Assembly: GCA_044224215.1 (NCBI GenBank)
Contig: JBGAKX010000005.1
Coordinates: 7,350-71,349 of the forward strand
Direction of reading: 5' to 3'
DNA length: 64,000 bases
Source of the DNA: Blastocatellia bacterium
GTDB lineage: Bacteria > Acidobacteriota > Blastocatellia > UBA7656 > JADIYM01
A program made the translations under genes and the position numbers. The notes under the pieces are model-generated. The model had not been told where the DNA came from. It did not search any database and was given only the letters and a program-made list of their open reading frames with translations. Below, piece by piece: positions 2,807-7,200 of this stretch; the stretch's first letter is position 1, and every line of letters starts with the position of its first letter.

Positions 2807-4195
2807 CTAGGTCGTCTCGGCCGGCGGGTCGCCTTGCAGCAGATCGAGGACGTCGTCGAAACGGTACGTCCTGACCATCTCGTGCAGCGTTTCCGCCAGG
2901 GCAGGATCGGTCCGTGCGATGTCGCCCGTCGCCGAGAGTGCCGCCTCGCGGTCGCCCGCGATGACTGCAACCCTCAGCTGCTGCAGCGCGTCGGGCGAGA
3001 CCGCCGCGATGCGTTCGTGTCCCACGCGCGGTCGCCTTTCGTGACCGACTTGCGCGACGACCGTGTCGGGCGCTTCCGCGTGGCCGTCGCGCGGGAGCGC
3101 GACGTGGCAACGGAATGTTGCGCCACGCCCGACCTCCCCACCCGCCTGAAGATCGCCATCCATCAGCCGGGCATAATTGCGGCTGATCGTCAGACCGAGA
3201 CCCGTGCCTTCGCCCGACCGTTTCCCAAGCGCCGTCTGCACGAACGGTTCAAAGATTCGGTTGCGCTGGTCGACCGGGACTCCCGGTCCGGTGTCCTCGA
3301 CTTCAAAGTACCCCACGCCATCGCCCCACGACACCCTGAGCTCAACGCTCCCGGCGGTCGTGAACTTGAACGCATTTCCGAGCAGGTTGATGAGAATCTG
3401 CCGTAACTTGCCGTCGTCGCCCGTCACGCGGTCCGGAACTTCCGGAGTCATCTCGACGCTAAAGCTCAACCCCTGACTCTCGGCGCGAACCCGAAACATC
3501 TCCTCGAGCCCGAGCAGCATTCTGCGCAGGCTGAATGGCCGATCGTGAACGACGGCCTGGCCTGCCTCCATCTTCGAGAGCGACAGGACGTCGTTGATCA
3601 ACCCGAGCAGGTGTTCGCCGCTGCGGCTGATGACTGCGAGCCGGTCGCGTTGTTCGGCCGACAGCGAATTGTCGCTCTCGAGCAGCTGCACAAAGCCCAG
3701 AATTCCGTTGAGCGGCGTGCGCAGCTCGTGGCTCATGTTCGCAAGAAACGCGCTCTTCGCACGGCTTGCCTCGAGCGCCTCCTCACCCTTCACCGTCAGT
3801 TCGCGCTGAAGCCGGGCGATCTTGAGTTGATTCTCGACGCGAACGAGCACCTCCTCGGCCTGAAACGGCTTGGTGATGTAGTCGGAACCGCCAGCCTTGA
3901 AGGCCGCGACCTTCTCTCGAACATCGTCGTGGACGCTCAGAAAGACCACGGGAATGTCGCGCGACTTTGCATCGGCCTTGAGGCTTCGACACACCTCAAA
4001 GCCATTCATGCCCGGCATGTTGATGTCGAGCATGATGAGGTCGGGCGGCGAGGCTTCGACCGCGGCCAGCGCCCGTCGCCCGGTTCCCGCCACGCGAACT
4101 GCAAGCCCATGCTGCTCGAGGATGTCGATCAGGAGGTCGAGGTTTTCGGGCGTGTCGTCGACGATCAGGATCTCGCCTGTGGTCATGATGACCAA
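2807..4195 (-). CDS. Hybrid response-regulator/histidine kinase (REC-HisKA-HATPase_c) with a C-terminal ~60-aa domain shared with the neighbouring kinase
   Basis: REC domain (ILIVDD...DLIMLDINMPGMNG...KP), H-box (NMSHELRTPLNGILGF), and N/G boxes (NLLGNAFKFT, DTGPGV, GTGLGL). Confidence 0.85.
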   Translation of the reverse strand: MVIMTTGEILIVDDTPENLDLLIDILEQHGLAVRVAGTGRRALAAVEASPPDLIMLDINMPGMNGFEVCRSLKADAKSRDIPVVFLSVHDDVREKVAAFKAGGSDYITKPFQAEEVLVRVENQLKIARLQRELTVKGEEALEASRAKSAFLANMSHELRTPLNGILGFVQLLESDNSLSAEQRDRLAVISRSGEHLLGLINDVLSLSKMEAGQAVVHDRPFSLRRMLLGLEEMFRVRAESQGLSFSVEMTPEVPDRVTGDDGKLRQILINLLGNAFKFTTAGSVELRVSWGDGVGYFEVEDTGPGVPVDQRNRIFEPFVQTALGKRSGEGTGLGLTISRNYARLMDGDLQAGGEVGRGATFRCHVALPRDGHAEAPDTVVAQVGHERRPRVGHERIAAVSPDALQQLRVAVIAGDREAALSATGDIARTDPALAETLHEMVRTYRFDDVLDLLQGDPPAETT

Positions 4196-4295
4196 TTAAC
4201 GGGTTCGGACGGAGAAGGTCAAGGAAGGCGAAGATGAGGACAGGCCGCAGATTGACGCGGATTGACGCAGATTCGGCATGTCAGCGAATTCACCA

Positions 4296-7200
4296 CTACC
4301 TGATGCCGCACGCCTCGATCGTGTCGAGGATCTCGTCGAACTGGTAGCTGCGGACCAGCCTGCGAAGGTCGTCCGCGAGCCCCTGGTCCACCTGCGCGAT
4401 GTTGTCGACCACGAACTGCGCGTCCTTCACGTTGCCCAGAACGAGCGCCGCCTGCAGCTCCTCGATCAACTCCGCAGGAACGCGCACCAGGCGCTCGGGC
4501 GTCAGCAATGCCTCGGATGTTGCAGGCCCGGACGCGTCAGGCTCGTCATAAACGAATCGCGTACCAAGGAACGCCTCAAGCTTTTCGAAGATCGTCGCTT
4601 CGCGGTACGGCTTGGTCACAAAGTCGTCGCACCCGGCCGCGAGCACGGCGCCGCGCTCGTGCTCGAACGCGCTCGCCGTGAGGGCCAGAATCTTGCACCG
4701 ATTGCCCGAGCCCTCGCGTCGCCTGATCTCGCGTGTCGCCGCCCGGCCGTCCATCACCGGCATCCGCATGTCCATCCAGATCAGCGCCGGACGCCACGCA
4801 TCCCACTCGTCGACCGCCTCGCGGCCGTTTGCGGCCTCGCGCACTTCGAATCCCACGGTGCGCAGCAGCTTCACGAGCAGTGCTCGGTTCTCCCACCGGT
4901 CGTCCACGACGAGGATCCGCGCGCCGCGCTCTCCCGGCGCGAGCCCCTTGACCCGACGGTGGGCGCGCGGCTGATCCGCCGAGTCGGCGAGCGGGAGGTC
5001 GGCCTCGAACGCAAAGACGGTTCCCTTGCCAACCTCCGAACGGACCGTGATGTCGCCACCCATGAGTTGGACAAAGTTCCGGCTGATGGCCAGTCCGAGC
5101 CCGGTCCCCTCCTTCGACGTCCGTCCGGTCTCGCTCTGCACAAAGGCCTCGAAGATCCCGACGATCTCGTCGGCCGCGATGCCCTTGCCGGTGTCCTCGA
5201 CCTCGAAGGCAGCGCGCCCGTCCGCCCAGCGCGCGCGCAGCGCGATGCCGCCCGTGTCCGTGAACTTGAGCGCATTGTTCAACAGGTTGATGAGGACCTG
5301 CCGCAGTTTTCCGTCGTCGCCGCGCACGTATTGGGGAATGTCCGGCGCCAGGTCGAACATCATTCGAAGTCCCTTGGCGTGCGCGCGGGGACCAAGCATC
5401 TCCTCGAGACCCTGCAGCATCCGCCTCAGGTCGAAGGTCGCCTCGTTCAGCGTCAGCTTGCCGGCCTCGATCTTGGAGATCGAGAGCACGTCGTTGATCA
5501 GGCCAAGCAGGTGTTCACCGCTCCGCATGATGATCCCGAGGTTCTCGCGATCCTCGGGGAGGCGGCCGGGCTCGCGCTCCATGAGCTGCGCAAAGCCGAG
5601 CACCGCGTTGAGCGGCGTGCGCAGCTCGTGGCTCATGTTCGACAGGAAGATGCTCTTGGCGCGGTTTGCTTCGAGCGCGTCCTCCTTGGCCTGCAAGGCC
5701 TCGTTCTTTGCCGCCTGTGCCGTCTTCTCGGAGACCTCGAGCTCGACGACCTTCTCGGCGATCTGGGCCGTGCGCTCCGCAATACCGCGTTCGAGCTCCT
5801 CGTTGCGTCGCCTGAGCGCGCTCAGGCGCGCGCGGACGAGAAGGTACGCGGTGCCCGCAAGCACAAGTACATAGAGGACATATGCCCACCACGTCTTCCA
5901 CGGCGCCGGTCGTATCTCAAATGTCGTGTCGATCGGGCCAGAGACGGTCCCGCGATAGTCGCGAGCCCACACCCGGAATACATACGAGCCGGTGGGAAGC
6001 GCCGTGAACGAGCGCTTGAAGTCGGGCGTCCAGTCGGATGGATTCTCCTCGAGTCCGATGAGCTGCGTTCGGTAGCGCGTGTCGCGACCGCGGAACAGGC
6101 TGAGCAGGTTGTATTCGAACGTCAGGCTATTCTGGTTGTACCGCAGCGTCTGATTATCGCCGAGGAGCGCGCCGTCGCGCAGTTGCGTGCCGCGAACGTA
6201 GAGCGGAAGGGAACGAGTGTCGTCGACTTCGCGTGACGGGTCGAACACCGCGACCCCTTTCGGCGTCCCCGCCCAGATCCGGCCGAGCCCGTCGATCATC
6301 GACGCGCCGCCGTTGAACTCGTTGCTCGGAAGCCCATCCTCCGTTCGAAAGACATAGACGTCAAACGGCGTCGCTTCATCGTCGGTCGGCATCCGAGGCG
6401 TCAGCCGCGCGCACCCCTTGTTCGTGAAGACGTAAAGGCGTCCGCGCGCGTCCTCCTGAATCTGATAGACCGTGTTGTTGGGCAGCGCCGGGACGGTCGC
6501 GTCCGACATCACGGTCCAGCCGGCGTCCGGGTTGTCGAGATCGAGATACGCGGCGCCTCCGCCTTCCGTTCCCGCCCAGAGCTCGCGGTGGCCATCGTGC
6601 GACGTGCGCTCGTGCAGTGAAAGGACGCTGTCGTTCGGCAGTCGCGAGTTTTTCGAGTTGTAGGCGCTCCACACGCCGTCGACGAGCCGGCCGAGGCCGT
6701 GCCCCTGCGTGCCGACCCACAATTCGCGCCTTCCATCGGGCTGCGGGACCTCGAGGACGCAGAAGAGCGACTTGGTCTGTAGCGCGGGCTCGGTATCGAC
6801 GACCGACCAGACGCCTTCCTTGAAGTGGAGCAGCCCGACGTTGCCCGACGCGGCCCAGAGTTCGTGCCGTCCATCGGGCGCGACCGATTGGATCATCTTG
6901 CGAATCGTCGGGCGCAGCGCGCCCGCGACGGGCACCGCGCCCGCGACGGGCACCGGCACCCACCGTTCGCCCGAGAGCCGCGCCAGCCCTCCTCCCTGCG
7001 TCCCGGCCCACAGCGTCGTCGATCCGTCCTCGTTCGTAGCGTTCAGAAGGCTGAACACGGAATTACTGGGAATGCCGGAGGTCGTATTGAAAACCGTCCA
7101 GACGTTGTTGCGAAGTCGAGCGAGACCCCCGCCACGCGCTCCGATCCAGATGGAGCGGACTCCGTCGGCGTCGACCGTCTCGGCAAACGCGTACGCGCTG

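Follow-up and report, generated by a model that had tools for sequence, protein, structure and literature searches.

Most of the hybrid histidine kinases TorS, BarA, ArcB, LuxQ and EvgS carry a histidine phosphotransfer (Hpt) domain in the C-terminal place that is the subject of this analysis, and hybrid histidine kinases without an Hpt domain are abundant, notably in cyanobacteria. A pseudo-Hpt is known from plants: AHP6 is a free-standing, full-size Hpt protein with Asn at the His site. Several hybrid kinases may also be joined into multikinase networks, as exemplified by GacS/RetS/LadS. The CheA3–CheS3 system of Rhodospirillum centenum is reported to be another such network (PMC3868531). 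In cyanobacteria, hybrid kinases constitute more than 10% of two-component proteins (PMC4558063). The DNA analyzed here is a 64-kb stretch (hereafter the window) from a Blastocatellia bacterium (Acidobacteriota; assembly GCA_044224215.1, contig JBGAKX010000005.1, positions 7,350 to 71,349 of the forward strand). It contains two neighboring hybrid histidine kinase genes, designated A and B, whose products end in a similar segment of about 60 residues, referred to as the tail. The tail proved to be a genuine helical domain that is found very widely and has no curated family; it is an accessory domain of hybrid kinases and possibly a bacterial pseudo-Hpt fused in cis.

The genetic organization of the pair, based on open reading frames (ORFs), Pfam matches and a hidden Markov model (HMM) of the tail family, is as follows (positions are those of the window; REC, receiver domain).

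4296–8309, minus strand: gene B, encoding a membrane hybrid histidine kinase of 1337 amino acids (aa) with a signal/transmembrane segment, Reg_prop beta-propeller repeats, Y_Y_Y, a transmembrane segment, HisKA, HATPase_c, REC and tail (ORF and Pfam); orthologs are L007_up (73% core identity) and L017_up (60%)
4995–5660, minus strand: transmitter core of gene B, HisKA at residues 884–950 (H-box SHELRTPLN) and HATPase_c at residues 997–1105 (Pfam)
4578–4916, minus strand: REC of gene B, residues 1132–1244 (Pfam Response_reg, 1.4e-22)
4299–4496, minus strand: tail of gene B, residues 1272–1337 (family HMM, 5.5e-20)
4196–4295: B–A intergenic spacer, 100 nucleotides (nt), without a terminator-like or promoter-like site
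2807–4195, minus strand: gene A, encoding a soluble kinase of 462 aa with N-terminal REC, HisKA, HATPase_c and tail, without a C-terminal REC (ORF and Pfam)
3836–4171, minus strand: N-terminal REC of gene A, residues 9–120 (Pfam, 6.1e-30; acceptor Asp in IMLDINMP seen by eye)
3095–3760, minus strand: transmitter core of gene A, HisKA at residues 146–212 and HATPase_c at residues 259–367, 53% identical to the core of B
2831–3028, minus strand: tail of gene A, residues 390–455 (family HMM, 2.2e-19; BLASTP against the B tail, 2e-12)

The two genes are placed in tandem, head to tail, on the minus strand, with B upstream of A. Both products qualify as hybrid histidine kinases, since Pfam matches well above the cut-offs, together with reading of the sequence, identified the HisKA H-box His, HATPase_c and a receiver with its acceptor Asp (in the REC of B, inspection by eye located the DD pair, the phospho-Asp in IWMDMRMP, the T in LTAS and the K in TKP). 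Each protein runs about 20–30 residues beyond its last Pfam domain before the shared segment begins; these linkers comprise about 27 residues between REC and tail in B and about 22 residues between HATPase_c and tail in A. When the two tails were compared by BLASTP (a single comparison), 62 residues were aligned without a gap, with 32% identity and 65% positives (E 2e-12), and each tail matched the family profile at about 1e-19. The initial annotation, which had described a C-terminal segment shared by two tandem kinases of the same strand, was therefore right on this point, and both peptides that it had quoted are present; the interval to which it had assigned them (2807–4480) takes in all of gene A and only most of the B tail, whose match runs to position 4496. 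In a six-frame scan of the whole window with a profile of 62 tails, only the A and B ORFs were matched.

An exhaustive HMMER profile search of 1.84 billion representatives, in which an alignment of 62 representative tails (A1, without any internal gap) served as the query, yielded 9064 protein clusters at E≤1e-3 and 2312 at E≤1e-10 (clusters being counted as representatives at 50% identity). With more than 9000 such clusters, the tail is by no means a peculiarity of the A–B pair. An iterated local HMM detected it in 112 of the 120 best full-length homologs of A, and a word-indexed search with the 72-residue tail alone found 2 proteins only. Inspection by eye indicated that most of the remaining homologs of A have a more divergent tail, with ...YD[ML]K.I... 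instead of ...FRFD.I...; since this variant was missed by the HMM at 1e-3, the family must be larger than the 9064 counted clusters. In P0023, P0024, P0030, P0052, P0105 and P0109 the divergent tail reads LP..L...L..A...(I/M)(H/R/Q)(N/S)...L......LG..G..LA..LR.L.Q.YD(M/L)K.I..(V/I/L)L(D/E). The named tail carriers are mostly cyanobacterial, and also come from Acidobacteriota, Beggiatoa/Thiomargarita and a few other groups.

No match was found in Pfam-A or NCBIfam for the tails of A and B or for 62 diverse homologous tails, and the PDB contained no chain related to the tail by sequence, or by profile above noise. The matches within the noise (designed helical and ankyrin repeats, ScpA, MgtE and CoREST) were dismissed as being of a composition or motif type (L..AA..gd.e.v..Li). 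A survey of the literature on pseudo-, degenerate and atypical Hpt domains and on the C-termini of cyanobacterial hybrid kinases brought up only the plant pseudo-HPts, which are mentioned in PMC5975490 and PMC10338860, and Caulobacter HmrB/HmrX, and no description of the tail. The view that the segment is not assignable to a known family thus holds for Pfam-A, NCBIfam and the sequences of the PDB. To judge from these searches, the tail is new with respect to Pfam-A (2025 copy) and NCBIfam (2026); Gene3D, SUPERFAMILY and CDD might already label the region as HPT-like.

A survey of the tail at histidine kinase C-termini, as envisaged in the initial annotation, showed that almost all carriers are hybrid histidine kinases and that the end of the tail lies 0–21 residues from the C-terminus in 262 of the 262 proteins checked. 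Among 62 full-length hits, REC was identified in 57, HATPase_c in 53 and HisKA in 46, and Hpt was outside the 25 commonest families. The sensors found upstream are diverse (PAS, GAF, HAMP, dCache, CHASE, CHASE2, ethylene-receptor-type and propeller), so that the full-length consensus is a conserved HisKA-HATPase_c-REC-tail cassette beneath varied sensors. The tail comes after a REC in 195 of 216 cases, separated from it by a linker with a median length of 21 residues (interquartile range (IQR) 18–23). The other 21 tails, which belong to several lineages, directly follow the ATPase domain, as in A. Since the nearest relatives of A (64–66% identity) have a REC-histidine kinase-REC-tail organization, the second REC has been lost in the class to which A belongs, and the tail has been retained.

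Two HMM matches were recorded in 16 of the 262 proteins. Fourteen of these, about 6%, contain full tandem copies (P0123, P0124, P0125, P0126, P0128, P0129, P0130, P0134, P0137, P0162, P0176, P0179, P0180 and P0193), another, a fragment, has an incomplete first copy, and in the remaining one the duplication is confined to the last helix. Rare non-kinase carriers (P0271, P0217 and P0170) comprise one CBS-domain protein with a C-terminal tail and two short REC-plus-tail proteins, which look like complete stand-alone response regulators. Its retention where no REC adjoins it, and the occurrence of CBS-tail and REC-tail proteins, mark the tail as an autonomous domain. ORFs encoding the tail only are mostly fragments, named “hypothetical protein” by NCBI and JGI; fragments encoding Hpt only are named “Hpt domain-containing protein” and carry PF01627. 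One 64-aa tail-only ORF, P0141, bears the JGI name “DNA polymerase IIIc chi subunit”, which is almost certainly a mis-annotation, since its cluster mate is a fragment of a CheY-like protein.

An AlphaFold2 model of the B tail, with A1 as input, reached a predicted local distance difference test score (pLDDT) of 91 and a predicted template modeling score (pTM) of 0.79. It consists of a short N-terminal turn followed by four helices of 10–13 residues (residues 1279–1291, 1294–1304, 1309–1320 and 1324–1333), and in the model of a tandem-tail protein both copies repeat the four-helix pattern. The conserved columns of A1 are 15 (P), 18 (W/L), 22 (L), 25 (A), 30 (D/N), 32 (E), 37–38 (L, I), 41 (I), 48–49 (L, A), 52 (L), 55 (L) and 59–62 (F/Y, R, F/L, D). 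The tail is acidic, with a mean net charge of −5.4. It has no conserved His column: the richest one contains His in 80 of 270 sequences.

The Hpt domains (PF01627) of ArcB, BarA, TorS and EvgS occupy the same place as the tail, C-terminal after a REC, and belong to the kinases whose cores are the closest to those of A and B. The best matches of the A and B cores in NCBIfam are partial matches to TorS, BarA, ArcB, LuxQ and EvgS. Neither protein is a TorS, BarA or ArcB equivalog, since the best scores (313.7 and 337.3 bits) fall far short of the TorS cut-off (676.5 bits), and the others are likewise far below theirs; A and B are, on these profile scores, relatives and not members of the TorS/BarA/ArcB families. 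A cyanobacterial kinase of the HrmK type (NF038297) has a related HisKA-HATPase_c-REC cassette, and B aligns to positions 191–595 of the 607 positions of this profile. However, its score is far below the cut-off (238 vs 725 bits), and a tail could not be accommodated in the profile, of which only about 12 positions lie beyond the REC.

The relation of the tail to Hpt was examined by profile-profile alignment with hhalign. A first, thin Hpt profile built from five domains (those of E. coli ArcB, BarA, EvgS, TorS and RcsD) aligned with the tail at a Prob of 13.6%. The thin Hpt HMM also matched an ORF antisense to a tail-coding region (L008, 4430–4690, minus strand, E 0.0037), and its match to protein P0257 involved another region of the Hpt profile (positions 81–123). 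Because of these two matches the thin HMM was distrusted, and since the spurious match in L008 involved a helical profile rich in Ala, Leu and Glu, reversed and shuffled controls were added. With profiles enlarged to 125 Hpt sequences (120 homologs added) and 270 tails, the score rose to 26.4 (Prob 54.8%, P 1.2e-4 for this one comparison, 68 columns). The tail against the reversed Hpt profile scored 11.4 and the reversed tail against Hpt 12.7 (Prob <1% in both cases), while 60 block-shuffled Hpt profiles gave 15.3±2.6, with a maximum of 23.5 and a maximum Prob of 33.7%. Profiles of DHp, REC and CA domains from the same proteins scored 10.6–12.9 (Prob <1%); the comparison with DHp, the HisKA helical hairpin (score 12.8, Prob 0.8%), revealed no likeness to this dimerisation domain.

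The thin and enlarged profiles gave the same tail-Hpt register, in which the gD-x8-[His→Glu/Asp]-x-I spacing is kept. The column aligned to His717 of ArcB contains Glu in 123, Asp in 53, Gln in 27, Ala in 23 and His in 2 of the 270 tails (Glu/Asp, 65%). It lies nine residues after the conserved D/N and two residues before a nearly invariant Ile, which corresponds to the I/L of HxIKG. In the B tail, the His-equivalent residue is Asp1304. Like an Hpt domain, the tail has four consecutive helices (predicted), and the alignment, in which the gD-x8-His-x-[IL] spacing is shared, covers the Hpt bundle helices C–F; on the basis of the alignment and the ArcB structure, we take tail helices 1, 2, 3 and 4 to correspond to helices C, D, E and F, respectively, of ArcB. 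The tail differs from Hpt in length (about 60 vs about 100–120 residues), in its helices of 10–13 residues, in the absence of a conserved His and in that the KG of HxxKG is not conserved; relative to Hpt, 8 residues after the His helix are absent. Hpt ancestry of the tail is therefore plausible, not established, and we regard the chances for and against it as about balanced. The statement in the initial annotation that the segment is not an Hpt domain stands as far as a functional Hpt is concerned, and was too strong with regard to ancestry, since the Hpt alignment lies outside all the controls. The tail cannot be a conventional phosphotransfer Hpt, and the lack of a conserved His excludes a phosphorelay through the tail itself.

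The genomic context of tail-bearing genes was analyzed in eight loci encoding relatives of A, chosen only for lying on long contigs and scanned in six frames with the tail HMM. Seven of them contain further tail-bearing kinase genes, located on the same strand and mostly adjacent (e.g. three in a row in L015 and four among five consecutive genes in L019); a single tail-bearing locus is represented by L012. In total, 10 extra tail-bearing genes were found in about 159 kb of flanking DNA. This corresponds to about 63 per Mb, a density that could not hold genome-wide; even 50 copies per 7-Mb genome would predict about one. In five arrays of the cyanobacterial type (L013–L016 and L018) a further downstream kinase gene starts with an N-terminal REC. 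No Hpt gene was found among the Pfam families shown for the genes neighboring the sampled tail kinases, and neither an output regulator nor an Hpt domain is encoded beside B and A, as judged from the window ORFs and Pfam.

A scan for related loci with a closer, 13-sequence alignment revealed only six, each of which is Blastocatellia-type. The order B then A recurs in two of them: downstream of a tail-bearing propeller kinase (1378 aa in L006, 1381 aa in L007) lies an ORF of about 490 codons for a REC-kinase, likewise with a tail. In L017, one of the eight sampled loci, the second REC is still present in the downstream gene, which has a 4-nt overlap with the upstream one, and L011 contains two large tail-bearing kinases in tandem. 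A functional link between A and B, as suggested in the initial annotation, is thus plausible, since the pair recurs in L006, L007 and L017 and tail kinases are neighbors in seven of the eight sampled loci; its proposed route, a phosphorelay via the tail, is the part that had to be given up. The B–A spacer, with no terminator-like or promoter-like site, is consistent with co-transcription of the two genes; a promoter and terminator scan between and around them was uninformative.

BLASTP comparisons showed that the tails of A and B are not each other's nearest relatives: each resembles its orthologs more than the tail of its neighbor. The REC-histidine kinase-REC-tail proteins of about 630 aa found across cyanobacteria likewise match one another best (58–64% in the core, 43–59% in the tail), in preference to their own neighbors, and this mutual-best pattern was also observed in the upstream class and in the sets win_A/L007_dn/L017_dn and win_B/L007_up/L017_up. 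Since their members are distinct lineages conserved across genera, the arrays are, by these similarities, conserved operon types and not fresh duplications. Several of the tail proteins of about 630 aa are automatically named “circadian input kinase CikA” in UniRef.

We propose, tentatively and at slightly less than an even chance, that the tail is a non-phosphorylatable, Hpt-derived docking module for receiver domains. It would be a miniaturized, degenerate Hpt (pseudo-Hpt) of about 60 residues that ends the cassettes of one large TorS/BarA-like clade, its four short helices corresponding to the four helices of the Hpt bundle and the phospho-His being replaced mostly by Glu/Asp. Since it cannot be phosphorylated, it would serve as a non-catalytic docking site for receivers. 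The candidate targets are the receiver of the same chain, about 21 residues upstream, and the N-terminal receiver of the next kinase of the array; in the window, docking by the B tail would couple sensor kinase B to REC-kinase A. The narrow range of linker lengths argues for contact with the REC of the same chain, while tails without a preceding REC, tandem tails, CBS-tail proteins and the occurrence of carriers in arrays argue for contacts in trans. It is Hpt ancestry, receiver binding and a mode of binding in cis or in trans that we infer here. The broader idea that many thousands of bacterial carboxylate pseudo-Hpts wire multi-kinase cascades, by docking to receivers of the same or the next kinase, is doubtful at present, with a probability well below one half.

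Several observations weigh against the docking module and its Hpt ancestry. Pfam PF01627 never matches the tails (those of A and B at E≤1, 62 diverse tails at E≤0.1), and the P value quoted above, which belongs to a single chosen comparison, would not survive a database-wide search. The PDB profile search matched HptB only weakly (E 0.099) and with another register (chain positions 76–100), and Foldseek found nothing at E<1 in the PDB with the B tail model; among its hits, HptB (7c1i) had the joint-highest query template modeling score (0.57), at E 6.4. The Hpt profile was built almost entirely from enterobacterial sequences, and the tail helices are about half the length of those of Hpt. In gene A, Gly occupies the His-equivalent column and an Asp is found one position later. 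With respect to the arrays, the sample is biased, since the relatives of A in seven of its eight loci are of the cyanobacterial type, and the clustering could partly reflect a general clustering of kinase genes.

Association of the tails with one another, i.e. homotypic docking or dimerisation that would hold tail kinases such as B and A in hetero-oligomers, could also account for the adjacency of tail kinases in the window, in L006, L007 and L011 and in seven of the eight loci sampled; the tandem tails, found in about 6% of proteins, could then be the intramolecular version of the dimer. We consider this unlikely. In the AlphaFold model of a natural tandem-tail protein both copies are folded (pLDDT about 90) while their mutual placement is unfixed (pTM 0.54; the 14-sequence alignment makes this a weak argument), the tail profile is unlike that of the DHp dimerisation domain, a tail resembles its orthologs and not the tail beside it, and a locus with a single tail-bearing gene, L012, exists. 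Heterodimerisation through the tails, the other role suggested in the initial annotation, thus gained no support from the tandem model or from the window tails, which are not mutually closest. In another unlikely alternative, the tail has no kinship with Hpt and serves as a helical adaptor for a shared partner encoded elsewhere (such as a free Hpt, an orphan response regulator, a phosphatase or a scaffold), giving one output per array. It would agree with the failure of curated families and solved structures to match the tail significantly, with the position of the acidic tail always at a free C-terminus on a flexible linker, with its retention without an adjacent REC or beside a CBS domain, and with the absence of output regulator and Hpt genes beside B and A. 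However, no candidate partner co-occurs in nine neighborhoods, and the register-consistent, above-background similarity to Hpt would be left unexplained.

A purely intramolecular lid, in which the tail folds onto its own REC and gates phosphorylation or stabilizes the phospho-aspartate, is decidedly improbable. In favor of such a lid, 90% of tails follow a REC at a tightly constrained distance, and a surface derived from an Hpt would originally have been turned towards the receiver of the same polypeptide. Against it, the REC is missing in front of the tail in gene A and in 20 further proteins, the tail also occurs in tandem, in CBS proteins and as an ORF by itself, and the clustering in arrays would have no explanation. 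Finally, a chance or low-complexity likeness between two alanine/leucine-rich C-termini might be suspected, since the helical segment abounds in A, L, E and D, and its profile weakly matches designed helical and ankyrin repeats. Its probability is negligible: it is refuted by the pairwise E value of 2e-12, by thousands of ungapped homologs with shared motifs (P15, L22, A25, D/N30, I41, L48-A49, L52 and F/Y-R-F/L-D) and by the confidently predicted fold.

As a receiver-docking pseudo-Hpt, the tail would resemble AHP6 in concept: an Hpt fold without the phospho-His, only able to bind partners and thereby to interfere with or organize a phosphorelay. It differs from AHP6 in being bacterial, half-size, fused in cis to a kinase and mostly carboxylate at the His site. 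The B–A pair and the cyanobacterial arrays also share the layout of multikinase networks, in which several hybrid kinases, often co-encoded, act on one another. In those networks, unlike in the docking proposed here, the coupling is achieved by DHp heterodimers, receivers or true Hpt domains, and no dedicated C-terminal accessory domain like the tail was found described for them in the literature searched.

If true, a docking pseudo-Hpt would help to explain how signals are routed from hybrid kinases in Hpt-poor phyla such as Cyanobacteria, and the tail would provide a concrete, testable handle on Hpt-less multi-kinase cascades. Its great frequency and this handle lend it a moderate interest. 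The tail deserves a curated family model, so that fragments and kinase C-termini are no longer annotated as unknown.

The protein encoded by gene A is 100% identical to P0003, a protein from a Blastocatellia metagenome-assembled genome. The mechanically assigned start of the ORF is TTG at position 4195, while the start of P0003 (459 aa) is ATG at position 4186, three codons downstream. The contigs of L006 and L009, labeled “uncultured Clostridia bacterium”, carry the Blastocatellia-type propeller kinase, and L006 also carries the downstream REC-kinase; the identity of their tails to the query alignment (first sequence, the B tail) is 43–53%. The Clostridia label could result from mis-binning, or the genes from lateral transfer. 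In L018, kaiA, kaiB and a gene for a KaiC-like ATPase (14207–17357) are located about 3 kb downstream of the tail-kinase array. Finally, the flanking gene order of the window (1–12966) seems to be shared with L007, as judged from ORF sizes and order only: the end of an FtsX-type permease gene, a 412-aa ORF, a 379-aa FAD-type oxidoreductase-like ORF, a 414-aa membrane protein and a citrate-synthase-like protein, their functions being guessed from sequence.

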